Below are positions 1-14,377 of a DNA stretch of 64,000 bases, piece by piece. Origin of the DNA: Ostreococcus lucimarinus (Eukaryota); NCBI GenBank assembly GCA_000092065.1, contig CP000600.1; one strand, given 5' to 3'. The position numbers and the translations under genes are program-made. Positions within the stretch are counted from its first letter, which is position 1. Each line of letters starts with the position of its first letter. Under the pieces are notes generated by a model, which ran no database searches, was not told where the DNA came from, and saw nothing but the letters and a program-made list of their open reading frames with translations.

Positions 1-3000
1 GGGCGTCAAAAGCTTCTTTGATGCAGCCATGAGCAACTCTCGAAGACGAGGAATACCAAGCGTGACGTTTGCTTCGCCGCGGCCGGCAAAGTGGAAGGTA
101 TTCAACGTCATTTGTGTGGATGGTTCTCCAACAGACTGCGCGGCAATGACGCCGACGGCTTCGCCGGGGGGCGCAACGTACGTGAGATAACGCATATTCA
201 TCAGCATGGCAAACTCTTCAGCGGTCAAACCGGACTTTGCCGCCAATGAACTTTCATTCTTCTTTCCTTTCTCTTCGGCCCAGTAACCTTTCGGTCGCGA
301 GTCGATGAACGTTTTAAGTTCATCGCCGAATTTCTCTGGCAACACTCCCAACTGGTCGCCAAAGTTTTCCATGCAGAATCGCGGTAGCTCTTCTTTACGA
401 CCTATGGTCTCAAGAACACTTACTTTTTTCTTGTTGAGCTTGGGCAACATCGAAATCGCGGCTTCGTTGTTGAGCAAAATGAGTTCCGGGTTTTCGGCAA
501 GGAACTCAAACTTCTCCAAGTACCCAGAACGCGTGACGTCGACGCAATCCTCCCCGTATTGAAACTGCACAATGCTTCCATCGCTGTCACGCACGGTAAA
601 ATCGTAATGCACTCTCATCGATTCTAGGTTTTTCACCAAACAACGCTGCAAGTAACCAGAGCGCGCAGTCTTCACGGCGGTATCGACCAAACCTTCGCGA
701 CCAGCCATGCAGTGGAAAAAGTACTCGGCGGGATCCAATCCGCTAAAAAACCGACAGGCGATGTAACCGTTCGCCCGCGAGCTGATGTCGAAAGGCTCGA
801 ATGAAGGGAGCGTCTTACCACTCGGCATGCGAGGTACACGGCGACCCTCGAGCTCTTGCTGGCCCAAGGCGGCGGCGATTTGAGAAAAGTTCACAAGCGA
901 ACCCTTTGCGCCAGAGATGGTCATGATGGAGAGACAATTCTTTGAGAATGGCTTCTTTGTACCGAACGGGAGACACTTCTTCACGGTCGCCGAAGTCACC
1001 TTGTTCAAAGCGCCTGACGCTTTCATGTCCAATTGAGCGCCCCATTCGGGATTTTCGAGCAACTTCGCCGCGATAGCCGTCATCACTTCCTCATCCGATT
1101 TCCCGCTCGCTTCTGCGACATCTGCTGTAGCCGTCTTACACATCTCGTCTGCCTTGTTTAGCTCCACTACGCGATCTTTTTCTGCATCAGCGGTGAGAAT
1201 CAAATCATCGATACCGCACGTAAAGCCATGCTTTTGCAAAAAGTTGGTAAAAAGTCGGGAAAAAATTGACAATAAAGCGCCGGCTGTGGACCGTCCGTGG
1301 AGCTCGGCCACGGCGTGCACAAGGCCGTACTTGCCGAACATATTCTTGTCTACGACCCCAGAGCAAAAGTAGTTTCGTCTAATAATCAGTCGATCTTCGC
1401 CAGAGTCTTCACCGCCGAAAAACGTGGCTGGGATCTTGCACGGTGCGCTGAACGTTAGCGGTGGTCGCCCTCGAGTGATGTGCGATAAAACCGCGGCGAT
1501 GACTTGTTTGCCGGTCCAAAGTGCTTTTGGCTTGAGGAGAGCAGGCGCCGGGACGTCGATTTTCCCGTGCTCATCACCGCAGTAGTCCACGAGACCGCTG
1601 TAAAGAAGCTGCGTGAACTCGGATCGATCGAAGAAGCTGTCTCGCATGGAGAGCAACAACCCGGAACAGATGTGGTCTTGGATCAACCCTCTGAGAGGCT
1701 TCCCGTCCGTTGGTACGGTGAACTGACGATCGCCGTGCATGATTTCATACGCTTCGGCTCGTCCTAAGTGATCCTGCGGAAAGTGAAGGTTGATTTCATC
1801 CCCATCGAAATCGGCGTTGAAGGTGGAACAGTTGGAGTAGTGCATACGGACGACTCGCTGCCCCGGTAGAACCCGCGCAGTGTGCGCCAAAATACCAGGC
1901 TTGTGCAACGTTGGCTGACGATTAACGAGCATCACGTCGCCGTCGCGTAAATGTCTATACACCGTCTTTGCGAGCGGTCTCGCCGGCCCGTCCGCAGATC
2001 CAGCGGCCGTCGTTGCTAAGAGAGTCTTCGCTATGGCAGCTCGCTTTTCGGCGGTGAACTTGTCCAAGTGAATCACACGCCCTCGTTCGTCTTCGATCGC
2101 GTTCGCCCCTGGATGGATTTCAGGTCCGTTTTCAACGAGTGTGCGCATCAAGTCAACGTTATGTGGGGTGACGAGCTCGGGAAACGTGAGCTTTTTCGCG
2201 AACACCGGAGGAACGCCAATTTCGCTCGTGCCCAGGTATGGATCGGGGGAAATCACCGACCGTGCGGCGAAATTCACGCGCTTACCCATCATGTTCATGC
2301 GAAATAAACCCTCTTTCTTCTCAAGCTGCTGACGAATCCCAATAGCCTGCTTGGCTTCTTGGGTGTCAGCCTTCGTGGCGTCGATGAGCCGATTCACGCC
2401 GGATTGCAAAGCCAACCAAGCGCGTACGGCTCGGCCTGCTCGCACCTCAGGCGGCTCTGGGACCGTTGGAGGCGTCCTAAAGAGCTCGGCCAGACTTAAA
2501 TTGGCCTGGATAATCGTCGTGAGCGCCGTATTTTGCGGGTGATCAAAGATCATATCGCCCATCTTGCTTGGCGGCCGGAACTTTGACGGAGCCACGAGGA
2601 GTGTTTGAATGAAAAACCTCGCCGGATCACTTCGACGCTCTTCGCCTCGCTTCGTGCACTTATTCGGTGGGGTCGTCGCCCAGATCATGGAACAAAAATC
2701 GTACTCGTACATCCATAAACGTTTAAGCAAAGCTCGAGCCTCAATTGGGGTGATGTAAAGCGACTTTGCCGCCTCCTGCACGCGCTCATCCACGGACATC
2801 GTCTCTGAGTCGCTACTATCGCTATCGTCGCTGCTATCAGACTGCGCGTCGACGTCTCGGGCTTCACTACTCTTTTCAGCCGCACCCACGTCATCCGTCG
2901 ATCTATCCGACTCATCCCCTTCGCCGAGTCTCTTGCGCGCCTTCTTTTTCGCCGGCACGAGCTTCGGTTCCACAGCTGCGCCGGCCAACTTCGTCGCTCC

Positions 3001-3846
3001 AGCGTGTGAATCTGCGCTCTCGGCGCTAGCTTCGCGAGCAAGGTACGCCATATCGTCGTTGATGTCAATGCCCTTGGCTAAGTTGTTCTCGTGATGCGCC
3101 TTCGGAAGTGCACCTCTGAAGATCTTATTGTGTCCCTCGGGCGACACCTTCGGATTCATAGCCCCACAGTTCTCACACTTCTTCGGTTGTATCGCGAGAA
3201 ACTCCTTGATTAAATTTCGCGCTGCCGTGGACGTGATCGAAGTCCATACGACCGGTTCACCTCGACCACGCGTTTTCAATCTCGGCAAGACGTCGTGGAT
3301 GTTGTCTAAATCCATCTCCTCCGCATCGCCGTCGCCCTCGACCTCTTTAAACACTGAGCTCATCTCTTCCTTCGCCTTCTTGCTAATCTCCGGAAGTACT
3401 CCCTCGGCCGCTTCCATGTCACCATCCATGAGCATCTCTAACCGCTCTCGAAACCTTCGCACGCGACTGGCGTGCAAGCGAAACTTGTGACAATGAAAAC
3501 ACGTCGTCTTCAGCAACCGCACCACCGTGCCGAACGTCAACGGGTTGTACACCGGCACGACGAGCTCGAGGTGTCCAAAGTGTCCCGCGCACATCCCTCC
3601 CGGAAATTTACACGTCACGCACGTCGTTTTCGAGTCCGTCGGTCCGAGCGCGGGGTCGTACAGACCATCCGCCACCGCGTTGTTCAACCCGTCGAACAGC
3701 ACCGGGTTCGTGATCCTCTTCACCGATATCTTGCGCACATCCTCGGCGTCGTAAAAGCTGAAGCTCGCGCTCGCGATCTCTTTCTGCACCAGTCCGCGCT
3801 GTTTGACCCGGTGTCGCGCCGTCGTCGCCGTCGCATCGCGCGGCAT
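1..3846 (-). CDS. RPA1: DNA-directed RNA polymerase I largest subunit (A190/RPA1 type), N-terminal ~1280 aa; the C-terminus lies beyond the window start
   Basis: Read directly on the minus strand from ATG at 3846..3844: MPRDATATTARHRVKQRGLVQKEIASASFSFYDAEDVRKISVKRITNPVLFDGL...CVTCKFPGGMCAGHFGHLELVVPVYNPLTFG...CFHCHKFRL. This is the N-terminal zinc clamp; PVYNPL and CxHCHxFRL are Pol I-like rather than Pol II/III. Downstream: GKRVNFAARSVISPDPYLGTSEIGVPPVFAKKLTFPE and the catalytic LVNRQPTLHKPGILAHTARVLPGQRVVRMHYSNCSTFNADFDGDEINLHFPQ. The reading frame stays open to position 1. It is absent from the ORF track only because it has no stop inside the window. Confidence 0.8.
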   Translation of the reverse strand, partial: MPRDATATTARHRVKQRGLVQKEIASASFSFYDAEDVRKISVKRITNPVLFDGLNNAVADGLYDPALGPTDSKTTCVTCKFPGGMCAGHFGHLELVVPVYNPLTFGTVVRLLKTTCFHCHKFRLHASRVRRFRERLEMLMDGDMEAAEGVLPEISKKAKEEMSSVFKEVEGDGDAEEMDLDNIHDVLPRLKTRGRGEPVVWTSITSTAARNLIKEFLAIQPKKCENCGAMNPKVSPEGHNKIFRGALPKAHHENNLAKGIDINDDMAYLAREASAESADSHAGATKLAGAAVEPKLVPAKKKARKRLGEGDESDRSTDDVGAAEKSSEARDVDAQSDSSDDSDSSDSETMSVDERVQEAAKSLYITPIEARALLKRLWMYEYDFCSMIWATTPPNKCTKRGEERRSDPARFFIQTLLVAPSKFRPPSKMGDMIFDHPQNTALTTIIQANLSLAELFRTPPTVPEPPEVRAGRAVRAWLALQSGVNRLIDATKADTQEAKQAIGIRQQLEKKEGLFRMNMMGKRVNFAARSVISPDPYLGTSEIGVPPVFAKKLTFPELVTPHNVDLMRTLVENGPEIHPGANAIEDERGRVIHLDKFTAEKRAAIAKTLLATTAAGSADGPARPLAKTVYRHLRDGDVMLVNRQPTLHKPGILAHTARVLPGQRVVRMHYSNCSTFNADFDGDEINLHFPQDHLGRAEAYEIMHGDRQFTVPTDGKPLRGLIQDHICSGLLLSMRDSFFDRSEFTQLLYSGLVDYCGDEHGKIDVPAPALLKPKALWTGKQVIAAVLSHITRGRPPLTFSAPCKIPATFFGGEDSGEDRLIIRRNYFCSGVVDKNMFGKYGLVHAVAELHGRSTAGALLSIFSRLFTNFLQKHGFTCGIDDLILTADAEKDRVVELNKADEMCKTATADVAEASGKSDEEVMTAIAAKLLENPEWGAQLDMKASGALNKVTSATVKKCLPFGTKKPFSKNCLSIMTISGAKGSLVNFSQIAAALGQQELEGRRVPRMPSGKTLPSFEPFDISSRANGYIACRFFSGLDPAEYFFHCMAGREGLVDTAVKTARSGYLQRCLVKNLESMRVHYDFTVRDSDGSIVQFQYGEDCVDVTRSGYLEKFEFLAENPELILLNNEAAISMLPKLNKKKVSVLETIGRKEELPRFCMENFGDQLGVLPEKFGDELKTFIDSRPKGYWAEEKGKKNESSLAAKSGLTAEEFAMLMNMRYLTYVAPPGEAVGVIAAQSVGEPSTQMTLNTFHFAGRGEANVTLGIPRLRELLMAASKKLLTP

Positions 3847-4171
3847 CGCGGCGCCGATGCCGGCGGCGGCGGCGGCGGTTCGAGCGCGGCGACGACGCGC
3901 GCGACGACGCGTTCGAGGCGCGCGCGACGGGAGCGCGCGCGATGAACGTTCGTACCCGCGGCGGGTGTCGTCGCGAAAGTCGCGCGGGCGCCGAGACGAC
4001 GGGGCGTCCGTCTGTGCGGCGCGGGTTTTCAGTCGGTTGGAGCGACGGCTCTGCGAGGTCGCGTCGCGGAGAAGAAATGGATGAAACACTCTAAAGCTCG
4101 ATTTGATCACACGCGAGACTACGGCGCTCGCGAACGATGTTGTTGTGTAGATCTATGGAGACTATGTTTTG

Positions 4172-5278
4172 TTAATGCATCGGAGAGTGCAGGTCGTCGT
4201 AATCGGAAGAATTGCTCACATAGGAAAGGGGCGGCGTGCCGAGATCGCTGCCGAGCGCGATAAACGTCGCGTTTGGATCCTCGAATTTTCTAATCCACGG
4301 GTGCTTCATAATGCGCTCGATGTTGAAACGACGTCGAGGGTCGACGCGCAAACATCCCGCGATCAAGTCTTTGGCGCCCATGCTGATGGAGTCCCACGTC
4401 TCCACGTCGTACTTGAAGGCGGTGAAGTTGCCTTGGCGAATTTTCTCGCAAAGCGTTCGACTATCTTCGCCTTCAAAGGGAAGGTATCCCGCCAATAACG
4501 TGTACATGATCACGCCGAACGACCATACATCCACCGACGGTTGCCGATCGCGTCCTCGAGAGTCCGGCTTCAAGCGCTCGGGCGCGGCGAAGTGTAACTT
4601 TCGCGCATCCTCTGGAAACGTTCGCGTCACCGGTTGTCCCAACTCATCCTCGATCTCGTACGTCCCGTACTCCACGACGTACGGCGAAGGGTGTCCCGCT
4701 AACGATGCATAACGCATCGACGTCACCACTAATTCCATGTTATCTTCCTCTCTAAACACCAACGTATCTAAATCCAAATTCCCACACGTCACCCCGCAGT
4801 CGACGAGGTGCTTCAACACCGACGCCAGTTGCACCATGATCTCCCGCGCCTCGTCCTCACCGAGCTTCGCCCCGTCCTTCTGTTGCAAGTAATCGATCAG
4901 TTTCGCCCCGCGCAACCGATCCACGATCAACACCCCCATCGCCGGTCTCTTTCGCAGCTCCGTGAAGCTCTCGTACACGCTCGCCACGCCGTCGTGACGC
5001 AACAACTGCAACACGTACTCCTCCATGGAAAACTGCGATATCGTCAAGCTCTCGCCGTCCGCCTGCTTTTTCAACCGCGCCAACACCGCCGTTCGCGCGC
5101 TCCCGTCTTCCCTCGACACGACGTCGAACGCGCCTCCGTACGCGTCGAACGTCGCCTTGGATTCCACCTCGTACGCGTCCACGAACGCCACCGGAAACAA
5201 CGACTTCATCACCGCGAGCGACCGATCGCGCGCCTTCACGCTCCCCGCGCGCTTCAGCGTTCCCTGCGCGCATCCCAT
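4172..5278 (-). CDS. Predicted pseudokinase (CAMK-like fold, degenerate catalytic motifs) with an N-terminal MGC dual-acylation motif
   Basis: Within ORF 4172..5614(-); the first in-frame ATG is at 5278 (aa 113 of the ORF-track protein, which begins at a non-ATG start). Protein starts MGCAQGTLKRAGSVK, a Gly2/Cys3 myristoylation plus palmitoylation consensus. Kinase subdomains VIII-XI are clear (HFAAPERL, DVWSFGVIMYTLLAGYLPF, CLRVDPRRRFNIERIMKHPWI). The catalytic loop HRDLKPEN is replaced by CGNLDLDT and the DFG motif by SLAG, and there is no clean GxGxxG loop. Confidence 0.6.
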   Translation of the reverse strand: MGCAQGTLKRAGSVKARDRSLAVMKSLFPVAFVDAYEVESKATFDAYGGAFDVVSREDGSARTAVLARLKKQADGESLTISQFSMEEYVLQLLRHDGVASVYESFTELRKRPAMGVLIVDRLRGAKLIDYLQQKDGAKLGEDEAREIMVQLASVLKHLVDCGVTCGNLDLDTLVFREEDNMELVVTSMRYASLAGHPSPYVVEYGTYEIEDELGQPVTRTFPEDARKLHFAAPERLKPDSRGRDRQPSVDVWSFGVIMYTLLAGYLPFEGEDSRTLCEKIRQGNFTAFKYDVETWDSISMGAKDLIAGCLRVDPRRRFNIERIMKHPWIRKFEDPNATFIALGSDLGTPPLSYVSNSSDYDDLHSPMH

Positions 5279-5305
5279 GACGCGCGCCCTCGCGCTCGCC
5301 GCGCG

Positions 5306-5355
5306 TCGTCGAATTCGCGTCGAATTCGCGTCGAATTCGCGTCGTTGAATTCGAA
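5306..5355. repeat. Tandem repeat (gaattcgcgtc)x~4 between the pseudokinase 5' end and the CBP20 3' end
   Basis: Seen directly: cgtcgaattcgcgtcgaattcgcgtcgaattcgcgtcgttgaattcg. Confidence 0.8.
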
Positions 5356-5401
5356 AGGTCGCGACGCGCGCGCGCGTCCCGCGATCGATCGACGCGCGCG
5401 T

Positions 5402-5456
5402 CGACCGCGTCGACCGCGTCGACCGCGTCGACCGCGTCGACCGCGTCGACCGCGTC
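5402..5456. repeat. Tandem 9-mer (cgaccgcgt)x6, followed downstream by (caaa)n at ~5607-5625 and (gatc)5 at ~5650-5672
   Basis: Seen directly: tcgaccgcgtcgaccgcgtcgaccgcgtcgaccgcgtcgaccgcgtcgaccgcgtcg; caaacaaacaaacaaactaacacacacacc; gatcgatcgatcgatcgatcg. Confidence 0.8.
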
Positions 5457-5710
5457 GCGACGTGCGGACGCGCGCGCGAACGCGGCGAACGCGCCGGAGA
5501 ATGCGCGACGTTTCGCGAAACCCACGATTGGCGATCCCGAGCCCCGCGAGACGAGACGCGAGACGAAGCGCGAGACGCGGCGACGCGCGAACGATCGACG
5601 TCGCGAACAAACAAACAAACAAACTAACACACACACCGCTACTCTCTTCCACGCCGACGCCCGCCGCGATCGATCGATCGATCGACGACGCGCGTCCTCC
5701 GGCGCGCGCG

Positions 5711-6232
5711 CTACGCGTCCTCGGCGCCGTCGTCGCGCGCGCGCTTCTCCCCCACCTCCGCGCTCGCCCGCATCCCCTCCAGCTCGTCCCGCAACAATTT
5801 CCCGTACCCGCCCCGCCCCGCGTCGTAGTACGTCCTGTACTCGTCTCGCACCTGCCCACCGGATTTCCCTCGTCCGAACTCGCGTCCCGGCTCGTAGCCC
5901 CAGTCGAAGTCGATCCTGATCTCGCGATCGTCCAGTTTCGTCCCGTTCAGGTACCGCACGCACCGCTCGGCGTCCGCGCGCGTCTCGTACTCGACGAACG
6001 CGAATCCGCACGGCGTGCGCCGCGCGCTGTCGAGGCCGACGACGATGGCGCGCACGACGCCGACGGATCGAAACAGCGCGTGCATCTGATTCTCCGTCGT
6101 GTAAAAGGACACGTTCCCGACGTACAGCGTCGTCGACGCGCGCAGGCGGTCGAGGTACTCGTCGAGCGTGCCGTTGAACCGGCGGTCTTTGTACTGCGTC
6201 AGCGGCTCGCGGTCGAGGAACAGGCGCGCCAT
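5711..6232 (-). CDS. NCBP2: Nuclear cap-binding protein subunit 2 (CBP20), an RRM protein
   Basis: First ATG at 6232 (aa 136 of ORF 5711..6637). [145 protein letters not shown]. This matches the CBP20 signature [53 protein letters not shown]. Confidence 0.85.
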
Positions 6233-6697
6233 GACGCGTCGATTCGAGATTCGATTCGATGCGGCGCGATGTGACGCGGCGTCGTCTCGCGTCGCATTCG
6301 TCGACGCGCATGCGCGAGCGATCGAGCGAGCGCGACGATGGCGACGACGACGACGCGGAACCGCGCGGGCGCGGCGCGACGGCGCGCGCGATCGCGACGT
6401 GGGCGAAGCGCGGCGTCGCGAGCGCGCTCGGCGTCGTCCTCGCGCTGTACGTCGTCGGTCTGGCGGTGCCGGAGGCGCGAGGCGACGAGGAAGCGGCGAT
6501 AGAGGAAGCGCGCGCGACGGGACGCGCGAAAGAGACGCCGACGAGCTCGAGGATCGAGTACGTGCCGCAGGCGCCGCGCGCGGGACGATGAGACGACGAG
6601 GCGCTCGACGACGGCGCGACGGCGACGGTGTACGCATTAATTTTTTGTGTGAATTGTAATTGAAGCTACGGATGCTACGGCTACTGCGCGCGCGCGA

Positions 6698-7696
6698 TCA
6701 CGCGTCGGGCTCGAGCTTGATTTTTTTCGCTCGACGCTTTTCGGACGTCGGCGTCGCGGATTCCTTGAACGCGGACGGGCACGACGCGTCGGCGGCGAGC
6801 GGGCACTCGGCGCACTTCGGTCGAAGCGGCGTGCACGTGAGCTGGCCGAAGCCCACCAACAGCGGGTTGATCTCGATCCACTCGTCCCGGGGAAGCCAAC
6901 GCTCGAGCGACGCGCGCGTGTCCTCGGGCGTCTTTTTACGCGGCGATCCATTCTTACCGATCGCGCGCTCGGGCGTCCACCCGAGGCGCTCGGTGATTCG
7001 ATGCACGTGCACGTCGACGCAAATTCCCGTCGGCTTTTGCCATCCGACGTTCATGACCAAGTACGCCATCTTCGGTCCGACGCCCGGCAGCGCGCACAGC
7101 GTCTCGACGCTCGAGGGAATGTCCCCGTCGTACTCGTCCAATAAAATCTTCGCCGTCGCCCGTAAATATTGCGCCTTGCGCCTGTGAAATCCCACCGGGT
7201 TCAGCATCGCGTCCAGGGCGTCCTCATCCGTGTTCAGCACGTTCTCCGGCGTGCACCCGTGCGCGCGCAGTCGCGCCATCGCCGCGTGATTGATCTCGTC
7301 CCTCGTCTGCGAGCTCAGCATCGCGCTCGTGAGCGTCAAATATCTCCGATACTTTTCCTCATCCATCGCGCCGCCCTCGCCCTCGACGTCGGCGATCTTT
7401 TCGCACCCCATCGTGTCCACCGCCGCCCGCGGTCCCTCCGCGCGCCAACGCTTGATCGTCGCCAGCGTCTTTTCCCATCCCTCCGGCGCCGTCGTCTCGC
7501 GCGCGGGCTCGAACGCCATCTGCACCGTCTTCGAGCGGCGCTTCGGCGTCGACGGCGGCGCGACGGCGGCGCGCGTCGTCGTCGCGTCGTCGACGTCGCG
7601 GCGTCCGGGCGCGGGCGCGCCGAGGGCTTGGGAAAACGCGCTTCCCATCGCGCGCGCGCGCGAGTCGACGACGCGCGCGAGGACGCGAGGGCGCAT
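6698..7696 (-). CDS. NTH1: Endonuclease III-like DNA glycosylase (NTH1 family, HhH-GPD with a 4Fe-4S cluster loop)
   Basis: ATG at 7696 (cat on + at 7694-96). HhH-GPD core: ALPGVGPKMAYLVMNVGWQKPTGICVDVHVHRITERLGW. C-terminal Cys cluster: CTPLRPKCAECPLAADASC (C-x6-C-x2-C-xn-C). Has a Lys/Arg-rich N-terminus. Confidence 0.8.
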   Translation of the reverse strand: MRPRVLARVVDSRARAMGSAFSQALGAPAPGRRDVDDATTTRAAVAPPSTPKRRSKTVQMAFEPARETTAPEGWEKTLATIKRWRAEGPRAAVDTMGCEKIADVEGEGGAMDEEKYRRYLTLTSAMLSSQTRDEINHAAMARLRAHGCTPENVLNTDEDALDAMLNPVGFHRRKAQYLRATAKILLDEYDGDIPSSVETLCALPGVGPKMAYLVMNVGWQKPTGICVDVHVHRITERLGWTPERAIGKNGSPRKKTPEDTRASLERWLPRDEWIEINPLLVGFGQLTCTPLRPKCAECPLAADASCPSAFKESATPTSEKRRAKKIKLEPDA

Positions 7697-7783
7697 GCGC
7701 CGAGGTGTGCGGAGCCGACGCGACGCGCGACGAGGCGAACGACTCGCGCGGCGCGCGTGGATTACAAAACGCGGCGGCGACGA

Positions 7784-9070
7784 TCAGTTCCAATCGTCCT
7801 CGGGCTCGTCGTCGGCGACGTCGGCGGCGCGCGCGTCGGCGACGATCGGCGACGCCGCGGCGGCGGGCGCGACGGCGGCTAATACCTCCTCCTTGAGCGG
7901 CTTCTTAAAGAATTGTCGCAACGTCGCGATGTGATTCAGCACCTCGCGCTTGCCTTCGCCGTTCACGGATGAGGTGTAAAGCATGGGCGGTAACTCGTCC
8001 CAATACTCGCTCACTTCGCGGCAAAATTCTTCGACGTTTTCCGCCGGGTTGGCGCGCTTGCCGGCGCCAACTTTTTTACGCTTGTCCACCTTGGTGAACA
8101 CCACGGTCACGGGCACGCCGGCTTCGCCGAGCCAATCGAGACACTCCAAATCTAAACGCTGCGGTTTCACCGTGCTGTCGATCAAGAGCAACACGGTGAT
8201 GAGCGATTCTCGTTTGATCAAATATTCGCGCGTAAACGCCGCCCACTTTTCTCGCAAATCCTCCGGCGCGTTCGCGTACCCGTAACCGGGAAGATCGACG
8301 AGGTAAAACTTCCCATCCCCGGTCGTCATGCGATAGTGATTGATCGTCTGCGTCTTCCCAGGATTCTTCGACGTCTTCGCCAACGACTTACGATTCGTGA
8401 GCATGTTCACCAGCGAGCTCTTCCCGACGTTCGACCGACCGATGACGGCGATCTCCGGCAGCGTCGGTTTCGGGCATCCCGCCAAGTCCACGCACGCCTG
8501 CACGAACTCGCAGCTCTTCACATTCGCCCCGCGTCCCTGATCTGCGAGCTCGAGCGTGCGCACGCCCAGCGCGCCTTCGTCGTCGTCGTCGTCGTAATCC
8601 TCCGCGTAATCCTCGAACCCATCCGACGTCTCCAGCACCACCACGTCCTCCGCGCGCCCTTCCCGTCGCGTCGCGTCGCTTCCCGTCGCCGTCGTCCGCC
8701 GCTTCGCCCGCGCGGGCGCCGGGACGTCGTCGTCGAAGTCTCGACACTCCCTCGGCGCGTCTCGCGTCCTCGCGCGTCCGCCGCGTCCGCCGCGTCCGCC
8801 GCGTCCGCGCCCGCCGCCGCCGCCGCCGCCGCGCCCCCGCGCGCGCGCGCGCGTCGCCGTCGTCTCGCCGCGCGCGGACGCCTCCGCGCGCGCGTGCGAC
8901 GCCGCGCGCGCGGCGAACGCGCCGCCGCCGCCGCATTCGCCCGGACGTCCTCGCGCCGTCGTCGCGACCGCGACCGCGCGCGCGCGCGCGCGCGAGGGCT
9001 CGCGCGCGGCGCGGCGCGCGACGGAGGCGCGCGCGCCGCGCGCGAGCGCGCTCGCGGCGCCGCGGAGCAT
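7784..9070 (-). CDS. engB: EngB/YihA-type ribosome-biogenesis GTPase with an Arg/Gly-rich organellar presequence
   Basis: First ATG at 9070 (aa 294 of ORF 7784..9949; the upstream part is Arg-rich antisense read-through). G1 motif IAVIGRSNVGKSSLVNMLTNRKSLAKTSKNPGKTQTINHY; DLPGYGYA; TKVDK. The N-terminus carries an RGG repeat encoded by (cgccgcgtc)x4 at ~8775-8812. Confidence 0.75.
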   Translation of the reverse strand: MLRGAASALARGARASVARRAAREPSRARARAVAVATTARGRPGECGGGGAFAARAASHARAEASARGETTATRARARGRGGGGGGGRGRGGRGGRGGRARTRDAPRECRDFDDDVPAPARAKRRTTATGSDATRREGRAEDVVVLETSDGFEDYAEDYDDDDDEGALGVRTLELADQGRGANVKSCEFVQACVDLAGCPKPTLPEIAVIGRSNVGKSSLVNMLTNRKSLAKTSKNPGKTQTINHYRMTTGDGKFYLVDLPGYGYANAPEDLREKWAAFTREYLIKRESLITVLLLIDSTVKPQRLDLECLDWLGEAGVPVTVVFTKVDKRKKVGAGKRANPAENVEEFCREVSEYWDELPPMLYTSSVNGEGKREVLNHIATLRQFFKKPLKEEVLAAVAPAAAASPIVADARAADVADDEPEDDWN

Positions 9071-9274
9071 GTCGACGCGATGTGACGCCGCCGAGCGCCA
9101 TCGCGCGACGCGTCGCGCCGCGATTCGACGCGCCCGACTTCGCGCGTCGACGCCGCGCGCGCGCGCGCGCGAGAGCGCTCGACGCGCGTCGTCGACGGCG
9201 ACGCCGGGACGCGGCGACGCGGATTCGGGACGCGGCGCGCCGAGGACGGATCGAAGATTTAAAATTAAATCAAA

Positions 9275-10384
9275 ATGTCGAAACGGTCGGACGACGGCGA
9301 CGACGACGAGGCGCGCGCGACGATGCGCGCGCCGCACGAGCGCGCGATGCGGGTGAAAATGATATCGACGACGCGACCGGCGACGGCGGCGCACGAGCTG
9401 GACGCGTCGGAGGCGCTGCTGAAACGGGACGGGAAGGACATCCATAAGCGAAGCGCGGCGAAAAAGGCGCGGTACGCGATGGTGTTCCCGGGACAGCTGA
9501 GCGTGAGCAAAGAGGGAAGGATCGGGGAGATGCGAGAGATGCACACGCAGGCGCCGGTGGTGTACTTGGATTTCGAGGGAGGGCGGATAAAGATGCTGGG
9601 GAGCATCGTGCGGCCGAAGTCGACGCGATACTTTACGCTGAACGCGAAGTCGAAGGATAGGATGAACCTGGAGGAGTGGTTCGAGAGCGTGATCGTGTTT
9701 CCGAGTTGGTACTGGATCGGGACGAAGGAGGAGAATCCCGAGGAGAAACCGTTGGCGCTTCCGGCGGAGTTGGGGGATTTGGCGGGGGAGGCGGAGACGG
9801 ATTGGGACGCGTCCGTGGCGGCGGGGAGCGGAAAGGCGGCGACGACGCCGACGACGGGTGCCACGGCGACGGCGATGAAGGCGAGTGAAACCGTTGTCGG
9901 CGATGACGCGAAAGACGCCGCGGACGGCGGTCGAAGACCGCGTCGACAAGCCGCGACGGTGGCGCGCAAGAAGATGTACGCCGACGACAGCGAGGCGGAA
10001 GAGGCGAGCGACGACGACGACGACGACGGACGCGTCACGTCCCCGATCGTCGTGCGTGGAAAAGTGGAGTCGTTCATGCCTCCACCGCCACCCGTGACAG
10101 CTCCCGCGCCGGTGCGCGAATCGATCGCGGCGCCCGCCCGAACGTCCGTTTCGGCGCCGTCGCGACGAGCCTCCGTTTCGGCGCCGTCGCGACGAGCCTC
10201 CGTTTCGGCGCCCAAGGTGGCGCCCGCGGCGAAGCGTCAGAAGAAGGACAGCGACGCCATCGTCATCGAGAGCGACTCGGACGATATCGAAAAGTCGGAT
10301 GATGACGATGATGAGATGGAGCTCGACGACGACGACGACGAGAGCGAGAGCGAGGACGAGGACGACGACAGCGATTTCGAATGA
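9275..10384 (+). CDS. Hypothetical acidic (probably nuclear) protein; conserved central block, 11-aa tandem repeat and Asp/Glu tail
   Basis: ATG at 9275. Central conserved-looking block VVYLDFEGGRIKMLGSIVRPKSTRYFTLNAKSKDRMNLEEWFESVIVFPSWYWIGTKEENPEE. Then RTSVSAPSRRASVSAPSRRASVSAPK, encoded by a 33-nt tandem repeat at ~10120-10215. C-terminus DDDDDEMELDDDDDESESEDEDDDSDFE. No family assignment I can defend. Confidence 0.5.
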   Translation: MSKRSDDGDDDEARATMRAPHERAMRVKMISTTRPATAAHELDASEALLKRDGKDIHKRSAAKKARYAMVFPGQLSVSKEGRIGEMREMHTQAPVVYLDFEGGRIKMLGSIVRPKSTRYFTLNAKSKDRMNLEEWFESVIVFPSWYWIGTKEENPEEKPLALPAELGDLAGEAETDWDASVAAGSGKAATTPTTGATATAMKASETVVGDDAKDAADGGRRPRRQAATVARKKMYADDSEAEEASDDDDDDGRVTSPIVVRGKVESFMPPPPPVTAPAPVRESIAAPARTSVSAPSRRASVSAPSRRASVSAPKVAPAAKRQKKDSDAIVIESDSDDIEKSDDDDDEMELDDDDDESESEDEDDDSDFE

Positions 10385-10445
10385 CTTGGGCGATTAGCGA
10401 GCGTTGAGTGTAATTCATTAAAATCAATATGCCACGAGACGGGTC

Positions 10446-11576
10446 TCAATACTTCTTCAAGAACTCTTGCAAGTCTTGCACCGCGGATTTCGACCCGACG
10501 AACATCGGGCTCTTTTCGTGAATATGCTTCGGCACGACGTCGAGCACGGATTCGTTCGCCTTCGGGCCTCGCGTCGACATGCCACCGGCTTGTTCGGCAA
10601 TCATGGAGATTGGCGCGATTTCATACAGCAACCGCGCCTTACCGTTCGGCGCCGACGTATCTGGCGGGTATAGCCAAATTCCGCCATAGAGCAAAGTGCG
10701 GTGGAAATCTCCGATGAGCGCTCCGATGTACCGATACGTCCACGGCTTGCCGCCGTCGCTACCACCCTTTTGTAGATGCGCGACGTAATCCTTGAGCTCG
10801 GGCGCCCACAAGTTGACGTTGCCGTTATTCCCCGAGTAAATGCGTTGCATCTTATCCCCGTCCGGAATCGTCACGCGTTCCTTCGAGCACACGAACTCGC
10901 CGACGTTTTCGTCAAAGTCGTACTGCGCGACGCCGTCTCCCGTCGTCAGCACGAACACGCACGACGAGCTATACATGCAGTATCCCGCCGCCACGAGCGC
11001 CTCGCCGCTCTGCAACGAATTCGTCAAGCAATTCGCCAGCGTCTCCTCCGCGCTATCCGTATCCTTAATCTCGCACGCGCCCGGCGCGTACACCCCGAAG
11101 ATGCTCCCCGTCGTCACGCACGCGTCGATGTTGCTCGACCCATCGATCGGATCGAACGTCACGATGTATCCACTCGCTCGTTCCACCGCGATCGGCGTGT
11201 CTTCCTCCTCCGTCACGATCACGCTCGCCCGTCCGCACGCGCGCAGCGTCTCCACGAAGACGTCGTTCGCGATGACGTCGAGTTTCTTCTGCTCGTCCCC
11301 GCTCGCGTTCGACCCGCCGGCGGCGCCGGTGTTCCCCGCGATCGGCGCGCGCGCGACGAGCGCGCGCACGCGCTTGCACGCGATGGCGACCGAGTTGAGC
11401 GCGATGGCGAGATCGGCGTCGATGTCCCCGCGCGCGCTCGCGCTCGCCAGGTGCGCGCTGAGCGACTCGCCGAGCGCGGCGCGCGCGCGCATCGCGCGCG
11501 CGGGCGCGCGGCGCGCGCGTCGCGGCGCGCGCGCGGGCGCGCGAGCGATGCGGGCGCGCGCGGCGAGCGTCGACAT
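10446..11576 (-). CDS. SBPASE: Sedoheptulose-1,7-bisphosphatase, chloroplast precursor (FBPase/SBPase family)
   Basis: ATG at 11576 (the ORF-track start 11609 is GTG). Transit-peptide-like MSTLAARARIARAPARAPRRARRA..., then GGSNASGDEQKKLDVIANDVFVETLRA...IVTFDPIDGSSNIDACVTTGSIFGVY...GKPWTYRYIGALIGDFHRTLLYGGIWLYP...KARLLYEIAPISMIAEQAGG, as in SBPase/FBPase. Confidence 0.85.
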   Translation of the reverse strand: MSTLAARARIARAPARAPRRARRAPARAMRARAALGESLSAHLASASARGDIDADLAIALNSVAIACKRVRALVARAPIAGNTGAAGGSNASGDEQKKLDVIANDVFVETLRACGRASVIVTEEEDTPIAVERASGYIVTFDPIDGSSNIDACVTTGSIFGVYAPGACEIKDTDSAEETLANCLTNSLQSGEALVAAGYCMYSSSCVFVLTTGDGVAQYDFDENVGEFVCSKERVTIPDGDKMQRIYSGNNGNVNLWAPELKDYVAHLQKGGSDGGKPWTYRYIGALIGDFHRTLLYGGIWLYPPDTSAPNGKARLLYEIAPISMIAEQAGGMSTRGPKANESVLDVVPKHIHEKSPMFVGSKSAVQDLQEFLKKY

Positions 11577-11652
11577 GGCGTCGCGTCGCGGAGTGTCGAA
11601 TCGCGACACTCATCCGCGCGCGACGCGCGAACGACGCCGACGCGCGCGCGGG

Positions 11653-12534
11653 ATGTCGCGCGCGAGCGTCGCGGCGACGCCGCGCGCGCTCGCGCGCGCG
11701 CGCGCGACGTCGCGCGTCGCGCGAGGTCGACGCGCGGTGGAACGTTTGAGAATTCTCGAGCGCGCGACGACGACGACGCGCGCGAACGCGTACGACGACG
11801 GCGACGGGGACGGCGACGACGACGGGAGACGCGCGTACGAGCGCGGGTCGCGGTCGACGACGCAGGGCGATCGCTTGCGGGAGGCGCGACGGCGGGAATC
11901 GGCGTACGAGCGCGCGCCGCCTCGAGCGGGACGGGGCGGCGGCGGCGGCGGAAGGATGGCGTACGAGGACGACGGGTACGACGACGGTGGTGGACCGGGA
12001 AAAGAGTTGAATAAATTTCTCATCGCGGGCGCGTTCGTGGTGGGGATCGGGGCGGGGGTGGTGTTCGACACGGCGGTGGACTTGGAGCCGTCGAACGTGG
12101 CGTCGAGGGAGATTTTGGATAGGCGGACGCCGAGCTCGGAGCTGTGCATGGCGAACGGGGCGTCGGCGATGGTGTTTGATCAACGCGTGTTCTTGTCGTT
12201 GAACCCGTTTAACGTGTACGTGGCGCAGCCGGAGGTGAAACCGGGGTGCGTGGTTCGCCGGTCGAATTGGGGCGTGTTGGAGCGAAACAACGTAGTGGAT
12301 AAAAAGGCTGAAGACGTGTGCAAGCAGCATTTGAACACGTTCGCGTTCGTGGGTGATCTAGACAAGTCCCCGGAGGTGTCGTGCGTGTATCACAGCGAGG
12401 ACGCCGAGAATCAATTCATGAAGGATCCGTCCAAAGCGGTGTTGGGGGACGGAGTCGCCCAAGCGATGCGCGAGGCCACGGCGGCGAAAAAGGCCGACAT
12501 GGGGCCGCAGGCGGGTCCGAAAGGTTTCCGGTGA
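11653..12534 (+). CDS. Hypothetical protein with one TM helix and a conserved C-terminal domain (possibly plastid-targeted); start uncertain
   Basis: 3' part of ORF 10840..12534 (the 5' 800 nt of that ORF is antisense to SBPase). Confident portion: KELNKFLIAGAFVVGIGAGVVFDTAVDLEPSNVASREILDRRTPSSELCMANGASAMVFDQRVFLSLNPFNVYVAQPEVKPGCVVRRSNWGVLERNNVVDKKAEDVCKQHLNTFAFVGDLDKSPEVSCVYHSEDAENQFMKD. In-frame ATGs at 11575, 11653 and 11956; 11653 (MSRASVAATPRALARARATSRVARG..., transit-peptide-like) is chosen provisionally. TGTAA signal follows at ~12552. Confidence 0.4.
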   Translation: MSRASVAATPRALARARATSRVARGRRAVERLRILERATTTTRANAYDDGDGDGDDDGRRAYERGSRSTTQGDRLREARRRESAYERAPPRAGRGGGGGGRMAYEDDGYDDGGGPGKELNKFLIAGAFVVGIGAGVVFDTAVDLEPSNVASREILDRRTPSSELCMANGASAMVFDQRVFLSLNPFNVYVAQPEVKPGCVVRRSNWGVLERNNVVDKKAEDVCKQHLNTFAFVGDLDKSPEVSCVYHSEDAENQFMKDPSKAVLGDGVAQAMREATAAKKADMGPQAGPKGFR

Positions 12535-12616
12535 TCGATCGGTGCCGTCGTTGTACGTGTGTAATGAACCAACCAATTTGTTTTCTTTGTTTTACATGTG
12601 CTAGTACACCGCGCAG

Positions 12617-14377
12617 CTAGGCGTCGGTGGGTTGAGAATCTTCACCCGCCGGCGACGATAACTGCGTTGCCTGAGATGCGAACAGCTCGGTCAGCGTCCT
12701 TTGGGAGACGTCGATCACGGGTTGCACTTTTTGCCGTTTCGGCGACTTCCCGTTCGTCGATGTCGTCTCGAGGTGATTTCCGCTCGTTTGCCCGTTCAAC
12801 ACCGCGCCGAGATTATCCAACTTCTTCTTTATGCTTTGCCAAATGATTTCGTCGATCGTGTCCTTGGCGTGTAGGTACTGCACCAAAACGCTCGATTGCT
12901 GCCCGATTCTGTGCGCTCTATCCTCAGCCTGAATCAAGTCGCCAGGCGTCCACACCATTTCGCCGAAGATCACCGTCGAAGCCGCGGTGAGCGTCAAGCC
13001 CATCCCCGCGGCTTTGATGCTGAGAATCGCCACGCGAACGTCGTCGCGACGCTGGAACGCGTTCACTAAGTCGCCTCTCACCGCCGCTGGCGTCGATCCG
13101 TCGATGCGAATCGTTTTGACTTTCTTCGCGTCCATACACTGAGCCACGGCGTCGAGCAAGACGCCGTGATGCGCGAAGAACAAAAATTTCGACGTACTCC
13201 CGTCGATCAACGTCTCCAAGTACTCGCACACCGATTTCGTCTTCGCCTTGGCGCTCGCTAAGAAGAGCTCGTTTAGCAGCCTTTTTTCTTCCAGCTCGTT
13301 CCCGCCTCTCTGACGCAGTTCGTCGAGTAGCGATTTTATGCGGCGCACGTCGCCCATGCTCGACTTCTCCAGCGCGAGCCAAACCTGCGTTCGTTGCTTC
13401 GGCGGCAAGTCCTTGAGCACGTCCTTTTTCAAACGACGCACCATACAAAGCTTTGAAATCATGACGTGCAGTTCGTCGGCGTGAGTACATCCCGTGTACA
13501 TGCCGAACGGCCCGCCGTTTGCGCAGTACCGCGCGCCGTACTCGTTCAATCGCGCGAAGACTTTCGGCACCAAGGCCTCGAGCTGGGTGAACAGCTCGAT
13601 CGGCCTGCTGAGCGCTGGCGTGCCCGTCAGACAAATCGCGCGATTGGCATCCTTGAGCAGCGGCATCACCGCCTGCGTTCTCTGCGCGCGTCGATCCTTT
13701 AAAAAATGACTCTCGTCGCACACGACGATTTTATACCGCTTCGCGAGCAATTTCGAGCGAAGCTTCACGACGAGCGAGTACGGCACGATGTCGAACGGTC
13801 GTCCTTCGTCGAGTTTCCACCCCTCGCTCGCCGCCCCCACGCACGCGACGTCGCCGTCCGCGACGTCGAGCCACGATTGCAAAGCGTTTCGCCAAGCCTC
13901 GCGCAACGAAGTCGGCACTAAAATGAGCGCCGGGCACTCCTCGCGATAACACGCCAACAACGCGCACGCCTGCACCGTCTTCCCCAGCCCCATCTCGTCC
14001 CCGATCAACACGCGTCCCCGTCGCCTCAGCGCGTACATCACCCCCGTCCTCTGAAATTCAAACATCTTCGCGTCCAGCGCCTTCGGCACGCCTCTCGCGT
14101 ACGCCCCCGCCGCGTCCTCCTCGAACCGCACCTCCGCGCACCGCAGCGCCATCCCCGGCACGTCCAGCACTCGCGCGTTCGTCCGACGCACGAGCGCGTC
14201 GCGAATCGCGCGCACCGCGCCCGCCGGCGCCGTCCACGCGCCGTCGCTCGCGCGCGTCGCGCCCGCGTCCCGCGCCGCCGCCGCCGCCGCCTCCCCGAGC
14301 GCGCCCGCGCGCGGCGTCGCGCGCGCGATCGCGAACGCGTCCCCAGGTTCGCGAAGCGCGAACTCGATCGTCGTCGG

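Follow-up and report, generated by a model that had tools for sequence, protein, structure and literature searches.

A candidate membrane-anchored CAMK-like pseudokinase in Ostreococcus lucimarinus

Ostreococcus has one of the smallest kinomes of any free-living eukaryote and serves as a minimal model of signalling. One gene of Ostreococcus lucimarinus, on the minus strand at positions 4172 to 5278 of a 64,000-nucleotide stretch of contig CP000600.1 (assembly GCA_000092065.1; the whole stretch is called the window below), raises the question of what a protein kinase may do when its N-terminus reads as a lipid anchor and its active site reads as dead. Public annotation of the product (XP_001422670.1, UniProt A4SAV7) goes no further than 'predicted protein' or 'protein kinase domain-containing protein'; literature searches for A4SAV7, XP_001422670 and ABP00987 found no citing paper, and a search for Ostreococcus together with pseudokinase returned nothing relevant. 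A survey of the O. tauri kinome lists thirteen 'CaMK-like' genes and does not discuss inactive members (PMC4143559). An initial annotation of the DNA proposed a membrane-anchored, catalytically inactive kinase scaffold, and this core reading is supported here, as the protein appears to combine a real MGC start with a kinase fold from which the catalytic residues have gone. We consider it probable (about 0.7) that the gene encodes an N-myristoylated and palmitoylated, membrane-tethered, non-catalytic CAMK-like pseudokinase that acts as a scaffold.

Kinase fold and catalytic motifs

The open reading frame runs from an ATG at 5276-5278 to a TAA stop at 4172-4174, is uninterrupted and intronless, and encodes 368 amino acids that equal XP_001422670.1/A4SAV7 (strain CCE9901) at every residue, an identity that marks the window as nuclear DNA of O. 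lucimarinus. Its N-terminus reads MGCAQGTLKR, with the longer opening MGCAQGTLKRAGSVKARDR. The Pfam Pkinase profile (PF00069), the kinase-family check that had been suggested for the protein, matches it with 99.7 bits and an E-value of 2.4e-28 against a cutoff of 31.7. The best matches among solved structures by sequence (phmmer) are the C-terminal domain of MSK1, calcium-dependent protein kinases (CDPKs), CaMKI/II, MELK, CASK and DAPK, all of the CAMK group, and several of these alignments span residues ~30 to ~333. An AlphaFold2 model built on a 28-sequence alignment (mean predicted local distance difference test score, pLDDT, 82.7; predicted template modelling score 0.83) places beta1 to beta5 and alphaC at residues 36-120 and alphaD to alphaI at 127-330. 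Foldseek finds CaMKII, the CASK pseudokinase, PhK-gamma and DAPK as its top matches in the PDB, aligned across some 300 columns (target TM-scores 0.76-0.88).

The profile match, the bilobal model and the Foldseek matches thus concur in placing the protein within the kinase fold, and its assignment to the CAMK group is by nearest sequence and structure matches and a C-lobe signature (…AKDLI…L..DP..R……HPW) rather than by phylogeny. The initial annotation had seen a C-lobe only; this does not hold, as residues 36-120 form a degenerate N-lobe in the confident model, and on that prediction the protein is a full bilobal CAMK-type kinase domain whose N-lobe is degenerate but present. The features of the gene, all on the minus strand, are as follows.

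4172 to 5278, minus strand: coding sequence of the CAMK-like pseudokinase, a single exon of 368 codons plus TAA (open reading frame listing, exact-sequence look-up, Pfam PF00069 at 2.4e-28)
5258 to 5278, minus strand: predicted N-terminal acylation motif, M1-G2-C3-A-Q-G6-T7, which fits the pattern G-{EDRKHPFYW}-x(2)-[STAGCN]-{P}
5228 to 5257, minus strand: disordered basic linker, residues 8-17 (K9, R10, K15, R17), from the lipid anchor to the folded domain (pLDDT below 50 for residues 1-17)
5174 to 5227, minus strand: family-specific helical extension before beta1, residues 18-35, with helices at 21-27 and 30-35, P29 invariant and A31 nearly so (AlphaFold2, family alignment)
4919 to 5173, minus strand: degenerate N-lobe, residues 36-120, beta1 to beta5 and alphaC (AlphaFold2; mean pairwise identity 0.38)
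5126 to 5143, minus strand: Gly-loop remnant A46-Y-G-G-A-F51 in place of GxGxxG (family alignment)
5069 to 5080, minus strand: equivalent of the beta3 'VAIK' motif, A67-R68-L69-K70 (phmmer alignment to the CDPK 4mvf; family table)
4274 to 4918, minus strand: C-lobe, residues 121-335 (Pfam, phmmer, AlphaFold2)
4763 to 4786, minus strand: catalytic-loop equivalent C165-G-N-L-D-L-D-T172 in place of HRDLKPEN (three alignments; codons checked by hand)
4712 to 4720, minus strand: DFG equivalent S187-M188-R189, 'ELVVTSMRYA' against 'ikiaDFGla' (codons checked by hand)
4613 to 4669, minus strand: family-specific beta-hairpin insert in the activation segment, residues 204-222, 'YVVEYGTYEIEDELGQPVTRTFP' (AlphaFold2 strands 204-210 and 216-222)
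4577 to 4585, minus strand: APE motif A232-P233-E234, in the C-lobe
4514 to 4531, minus strand: DVWSFG, residues 250-255, in the C-lobe
4328 to 4330, minus strand: subdomain XI Arg, R317, invariant across the family, in the C-lobe
4172 to 4273, minus strand: short C-terminal tail, residues 336-368, and stop (pLDDT below 50 for residues 342-368)

Orthologues were sought by two word-indexed searches of 5.8 billion proteins, which found ten distinct lineages at 41-98% identity, and it is across these ten that the motifs are followed here. The catalytic positions were mapped by three independent alignments, namely phmmer (MSK1, CDPK), a local hidden Markov model (HMM) derived from 19 canonical CAMK-like kinases, and the multiple alignment of the family itself, and the three concur on the catalytic loop and on DFG. 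The replacement of HRD by CGN (residues 165-167), already claimed in the initial annotation, is borne out by all of them. The position of the catalytic Asp reads N, N, D, D, D, S, S, L, S and S from lineage to lineage, behind an invariant Cys-Gly (C165, G166), the catalytic-loop Lys is replaced by Asp, Asn or Thr and the catalytic-loop Asn by Thr or Ser in all ten. At the DFG position the lineages have [S/T/E]-[M/F]-[R/V], so that the metal-binding Asp is gone everywhere and the hydrophobic character of the Phe position is kept. The loss of DFG had therefore been called correctly, although not its location: 'SLAG' (192-195) had been taken as the equivalent and is excluded, since DFG aligns to S187-M188-R189, five residues earlier. 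Plain MAFFT with a single canonical kinase put DFG wrongly inside the insert, and that alignment was discarded for this position.

The N-lobe motifs have gone a similar way. There is no GxGxxG, as had been stated, but a remnant YGGAF remains of the Gly loop, which reads xGGxF across the lineages and RECQF or RECHC in two of them. K70 is most probably the equivalent of the beta3 Lys (ARLK against VAIK), judging from the CDPK alignment and from an orthologue (P0106) in which the local HMM pairs 'CAVK' with 'vAiK'; the position reads K, R, T, T, R, S, S, K, R and K in the ten lineages, and that of the alphaC Glu is not fixed either. The 'GT' of the P+1 loop is missing (…RKLHFAAPE). None of the ten lineages keeps the complete catalytic set and each has lost at least three canonical catalytic residues. 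As far as sequence can tell, the loss is family-wide and the lost positions are unconstrained. Having CGN for HRD, T172 for the Asn and S187 for the DFG Asp, with Lys and Glu variable, the protein falls outside the catalytically competent kinases; it falls within the sequence-defined pseudokinases by its lost catalytic residues, a reading frame intact in ten lineages and a ratio of nonsynonymous to synonymous substitution rates (dN/dS) below 1. How far the degenerate motifs are conserved had been left as a check: the loss holds in 10 of 10 lineages, but orthologues come only from Ostreococcus-like syntenic lineages, not demonstrably from across the Mamiellophyceae.

The rest of the domain is held more firmly. 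The APE, DVWSFG and subdomain XI Arg named in the initial annotation are all present (A232-P233-E234, 250-255, R317), and invariant or nearly so in the family are APE, DxWxFG, R317, HPW and 'GNFTAF.YD.ETW..IS.GAKDLIAGCLRV'. At the former active site C165-G166, M188 and A191 are invariant; that the DFG-Phe position stays Met or Phe and that Cys-Gly never changes suggests that a fixed conformation of this site matters. From DFG to APE there are 45 residues, and the family-specific hairpin lies among them, with Y207, R219 and T220 invariant.

Beyond the kinase domain there is little. Pfam reports kinase domains alone, with no EF-hand, and the tail, 'FEDPNATFIALGSDLGTPPLSYVSNSSDYDDLHSPMH', is acidic and Ser-rich, has no predicted helix and shows by inspection no segment of the calmodulin-binding type, which sets it apart from CaMKI/II/IV-type regulation. 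The protein terminates 38 residues past HPWIR in this disordered tail, unlike a CDPK, CDPK-related kinase (CRK) or CCaMK. Lacking both EF-hands and a calmodulin-binding tail, it is therefore no direct sensor of Ca2+ in the manner of a CDPK, CRK or CaMK. The disordered and fast-evolving tail holds two conserved short motifs, A-T338-F339 and T348-P-P-x-S352 (window 4220-4267), the latter present in most lineages and resembling a proline-directed phosphosite.

The N-terminus and the evolution of the family

MGC is the classical signal for myristoylation of Gly2 and palmitoylation of Cys3, known from Src-family kinases, G-alpha subunits, plant CDPKs and CBL1, and N-myristoyltransferase is general in eukaryotes. 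The O. lucimarinus protein has the Cys next to Gly2 that defines this dually acylated class, and the prediction is N-myristoylation at Gly2 and S-palmitoylation at Cys3. Gly2 is kept in 10 of 10 lineages, Cys3 in 9 of 10, and position 6 is small (Gly or Ser) in all; residues 4-13 otherwise diverge and vary in length. The N-termini read MGCAQG in the window and in its closest strain (L008), MGCAHG (L007), MGCVAS (L002), MGCAIS (L005), MGCFAS (L004 and P0327), MGCWNS (P0328), MGCASS (P0097) and MGGA[AS]S (P0010/P0088), and those of all ten lineages fit the PROSITE-type N-myristoylation pattern. Palmitoylation would accordingly be expected, by motif, in most lineages rather than all.

The start itself, as the initial annotation had it, is well founded. 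MG(C) is the earliest in-frame ATG at every locus examined, the RefSeq model is identical, and at one locus (L002) a stop codon lies one codon ahead of the ATG; three metagenome models began at a downstream Met, and in each the MGC codons stand in frame just upstream. Among 119 first-ATG reading frames of at least 100 amino acids in the six frames of the window, two have a myristoylation-type N-terminus and one, the pseudokinase, has MGC. A kinase match of 99.7 bits, a background of 2/119 for such starts and conservation in 10/10 lineages together argue that an MGC kinase at this place is no accident of chance.

The family is narrow. A HMMER profile search of 1.84 billion cluster representatives returned two full-length family members (618 and 504 bits) and two fragments, the remaining matches being generic or multi-kinase proteins, with single-domain proteins at 136 bits or less; this gap in bit score separates the family sharply from other kinases. 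Every lineage with a long contig has the pseudokinase between CBP20 and the large subunit of RNA polymerase (~1,740 amino acids), within a conserved order of eleven genes: SNF2 helicase, DUF3172, FBPase, an unknown gene, GTPase, EndoIII, CBP20, pseudokinase, RNA polymerase large subunit, adenylosuccinate lyase and a UvrB-like gene. The full order was seen in the longest contigs (loci L005, L009, L010, L012 and L013), with shorter ones covering part of it, and the minus-strand block at 1-14368 of the window has the same order, its RNA polymerase gene beginning at 3846 and running off the window start. The synteny and a G+C content of 0.56-0.62 suggest that every lineage belongs to Ostreococcus or to a very near relative. 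Members of the family turned up only where the order CBP20, pseudokinase, RNA polymerase large subunit is shared and, as far as the searches could show, the family is restricted to Ostreococcus, its presence in Micromonas or Bathycoccus not being demonstrated.

The gene evolves fast, and unevenly along its length. Against L009, a closely related lineage (dS about 0.15), dN is 0.085 and dN/dS 0.55 for the pseudokinase, the highest of nine syntenic genes, whose range is 0.06-0.51. By region, and on small counts, dN/dS is 0.88 for residues 14-120 (the extension before beta1 and the N-lobe), 0.41 for the C-lobe and 0.28 for alphaF to alphaI (residues 245-335). Distant lineages are 41-51% identical to the window copy, against 69-86% for CBP20, EndoIII, GTPase, FBPase and the RNA polymerase subunit; the mean pairwise identity is 0.66 over alphaF to alphaI (residues 245-331) and 0.34-0.45 elsewhere. 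Ratios between distant lineages were left uninterpreted because synonymous sites are saturated there (dS 0.9-1.7). A fast N-lobe beside a slow C-lobe is what would be expected if the constraint of nucleotide binding is gone and the surfaces of the C-lobe are still in use. The 98%-identical strain (L008) differs from the window by ~8 nonsynonymous and 0 synonymous changes and a two-codon indel in the tail, too few to test, in a pattern that fits the high dN/dS of the gene. Two sequences of one 90% cluster (P0053 and P0003) differ in a block at ~160-200, where P0053 is identical to the O. lucimarinus type, which suggests either recombination between lineages or a chimeric metagenome assembly.

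Upstream of the ATG the frame stays open to 5614 (336 nt) with zero in-frame ATG. Its translation is RSTRST low complexity from the tandem repeat CGCGTCGAC, which forms a perfect array of 6.8 copies at 5397-5457, next to one of 3.5 copies of CGTCGAATTCG at 5307-5344; (AACA)n and (CGAT)n lie further upstream, at 5606-5685. Since these repeats mimic coding sequence, they misled metagenome gene callers into models of 412-452 amino acids. The region is best described as follows.

5279 to 5710, no strand: intergenic stretch that separates the pseudokinase from CBP20 and holds the shared promoter and 5' leader, repeat-rich and noncoding (tandem repeats; frame differing between strains, P0004; no in-frame ATG)

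In the neighbouring EndoIII homologue (6698-7696, minus strand) the second Met opens MGSAFSQ, which was considered as a further myristoylation start and rejected; orthologues start upstream at a conserved, presequence-like M-[LR]-x-R-V-x-A-R peptide, and the match is therefore internal and coincidental.

Proposed mode of action and competing explanations

Taken together, the data point to the following mode of action. The initiator Met would be removed, Gly2 N-myristoylated co-translationally and Cys3 then S-palmitoylated, if the motif is used as it is elsewhere. The lipid anchor, together with the basic K9, R10, K15 and R17, would hold a flexible linker of ~17 residues and the folded domain at the membrane. 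The bilobal kinase fold appears to be retained, on a confident prediction, and the residues for binding ATP and Mg and for phosphotransfer are gone at the level of sequence; binding rather than catalysis would thus be expected, and the protein may recruit, hold or allosterically regulate a membrane partner, perhaps a kinase that is active or a would-be substrate. As surfaces for such contacts the candidates are the strongly conserved alphaF-alphaI region of the C-lobe, the core around APE and R317 and the hairpin of the activation segment, and we speculate that the invariant T220 and the TPPxS of the tail may be regulatory sites for other kinases.

Several observations weigh against such a scaffold. 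An abundant lineage (P0010/P0088) starts MGGA[AS]S and has no Cys3, so palmitoylation cannot extend to the whole family. The beta3 Lys position is ambiguous by 2-4 residues in either direction, the three alignments giving K70, R68 or L66, and a Lys is kept there in three lineages, O. lucimarinus included, with Arg in three more; three lineages also keep the Asp at the HRD position, as CGD. CASK, HER3 and the JH2 domain of JAK2, all pseudokinases by motif, keep weak or atypical activity. The protein could be an atypical active kinase with a non-canonical set of residues, as in CASK (Mg-independent) or WNK (displaced Lys), perhaps through Cys165 or K70. The invariance of C165-G166, M188 and A191, the alignment of K70 to the VAIK Lys in O. 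lucimarinus, the retained Asp of CGD and the rank of CASK among the nearest structural matches would all fit. We nevertheless regard this as unlikely: the catalytic-loop Asn and the DFG Asp, both metal ligands, and the catalytic-loop Lys are missing in 10 of 10 lineages, the positions of the catalytic Asp, beta3 Lys and alphaC Glu vary freely, which would be surprising in residues that serve catalysis, the O. lucimarinus protein lacks the P+1 'GT', and residues 14-120, with the nucleotide-binding lobe, evolve near-neutrally. The same high rate raises the thought of a decaying or functionless remnant under relaxed constraint and heading for loss, and the dN/dS of 0.55 could indeed come partly from relaxed constraint rather than from a specialised function. 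Its dN and dN/dS exceed those of its neighbours, its identity between lineages is far below theirs, and two metagenomic models (P0004, P0005) depart from the family midway as if frameshifted; these are more likely errors of assembly or gene calling, being single-member clusters. Decay is very unlikely all the same, as the full-length reading frame is intact at the same syntenic position in ten lineages whose synonymous sites are saturated, which is also why we do not call it a pseudogene; more than 60 columns are invariant (first ten-sequence alignment), alphaF to alphaI are constrained, and the N-terminal motif and the hairpin are conserved.

The anchor can be doubted separately from the dead active site. 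A soluble pseudokinase might keep MG(C) for the context of translation initiation or for rules of N-terminal stability, with no lipid and no membrane involved; one lineage has no Cys3, the case for acylation rests on the motif, and PROSITE-type patterns are permissive. This too seems improbable, because Gly2, the small position 6 and Cys3 are conserved jointly while the residues around them change, and because Src-family kinases, G-alpha subunits, CBL1 and plant CDPKs make use of the motif. It works in PSKH1/PSKH2 as well (PMC9988210). A mis-modelled gene, with another start or a canonical N-lobe supplied by an upstream exon, could have been suspected from the 336-nt open frame and from the metagenome callers that extended into it (models of 452 and 412 amino acids), but is hardly credible: the frame has no ATG, consists of tandem repeats and is not conserved between strains (P0004), one locus (L002) has its stop just before the ATG, and an upstream exon is unnecessary, because the N-lobe, though degenerate, is already encoded downstream of MGC in the same exon. 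That upstream exon would have overturned the initial annotation. Finally, the protein might be a membrane-anchored kinase decoy or sensor in a conflict with pathogens such as prasinoviruses, its fast and N-lobe-biased divergence then being adaptive, or a redox or thiol switch through the invariant Cys165. Both are quite doubtful: nothing positive points to either, and IMG/VR, scanned by means of the family alignment, yielded only generic kinases at 21-36% identity, with no viral homologue and no prasinovirus copy. A membrane-tethered, non-catalytic scaffold thus remains the preferred reading.

On that reading, a conserved 'protein kinase' of Ostreococcus would be recognised as lipid-anchored and non-catalytic, and its minimal kinase network would have to be redrawn. 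Being compact and of a single domain, the protein would also be a case in which to ask what role a dead CAMK has once tethered to a membrane, a question that is equally live for PSKH2 and CaMKv. As homologous recombination is possible in O. tauri, the question can be put to the test. The family further illustrates how relaxed catalytic constraint may act on a kinase, with the stretch that contains the N-lobe drifting near-neutrally and the docking surfaces of the C-lobe staying fixed.

Relation to known lipid-anchored kinases

The nearest counterpart is human PSKH2, an MGC-type CAMK pseudokinase in which myristoylation of Gly2 has been shown experimentally, its localisation depends on it, and Cys3 is a putative palmitoylation site (PMC9988210). 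Both proteins have the MGC N-terminus and a CAMK-type kinase domain classed as a pseudokinase, and neither has EF-hands. They differ in that PSKH2 carries a single change from HRD to HRN and keeps all ATP-binding residues, whereas in the Ostreococcus protein the catalytic loop is without its Lys and Asn, DFG is without its Asp, the Gly loop is gone and the activation loop carries an insert of its own. PSKH2 is, moreover, a gene of chordates, is classed as a pseudokinase in primates and has a clear active paralogue, PSKH1, while the Ostreococcus family is algal and no close active paralogue of it was found. Orthology to PSKH1/PSKH2 is unlikely, and the relation is better seen as analogy than as membership, since the family, at 504-618 bits, stands sharply apart from all other kinases.

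CaMKv is another CAMK pseudokinase, enriched at the plasma membrane through N-terminal S-palmitoylation (Cys5) and working by protein interactions (PMC9371321). It differs from the Ostreococcus protein in not being myristoylated and in being a neuronal protein of animals that has a long C-terminal extension; in sequence nothing specific links the two apart from the CAMK fold. CaMKv also binds calmodulin. CASK, third among the Foldseek matches, likewise has a CAMK-type domain with non-canonical metal-binding residues; it keeps HRD and the beta3 Lys, has Mg-independent activity and no lipid anchor, and is a multidomain MAGUK.

Closer to home are the plant and algal kinases. The best named sequence matches outside the family include plant CDPKs, at 38% identity over the C-lobe, and CDPKs and CRKs of plants and algae typically have the MGC or MGxC N-terminus of dual acylation, as does the CBL1 type with its MGCxxSK anchor. 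CDPKs and CRKs are active kinases with a junction and an EF-hand domain, degenerate in some, whereas the Ostreococcus protein ends ~40 residues after its kinase domain. Six proteins (P0191, P0203, P0210, P0211, P0241 and P0273), among the top single-domain matches of the family profile at 130-136 bits against 504-618 for members, resemble it more in build, with an MG[N/I/T]C start and a kinase domain alone in 320-345 amino acids. Unlike the family they have VAMK, HRDLKPEN, DFG and APE intact, being presumably active, and no hairpin insert in the activation loop; such MGNC, MGIC and MGTC kinases may represent the active, acylated type ancestral to the Ostreococcus family, to go by their sequences. 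The Ostreococcus family is thus a lineage-specific addition to the already known lipid-anchored CAMK pseudokinases, and its points of note are its extreme degeneracy, its conserved hairpin insert, its invariant Cys-Gly and its fast, N-lobe-biased evolution.

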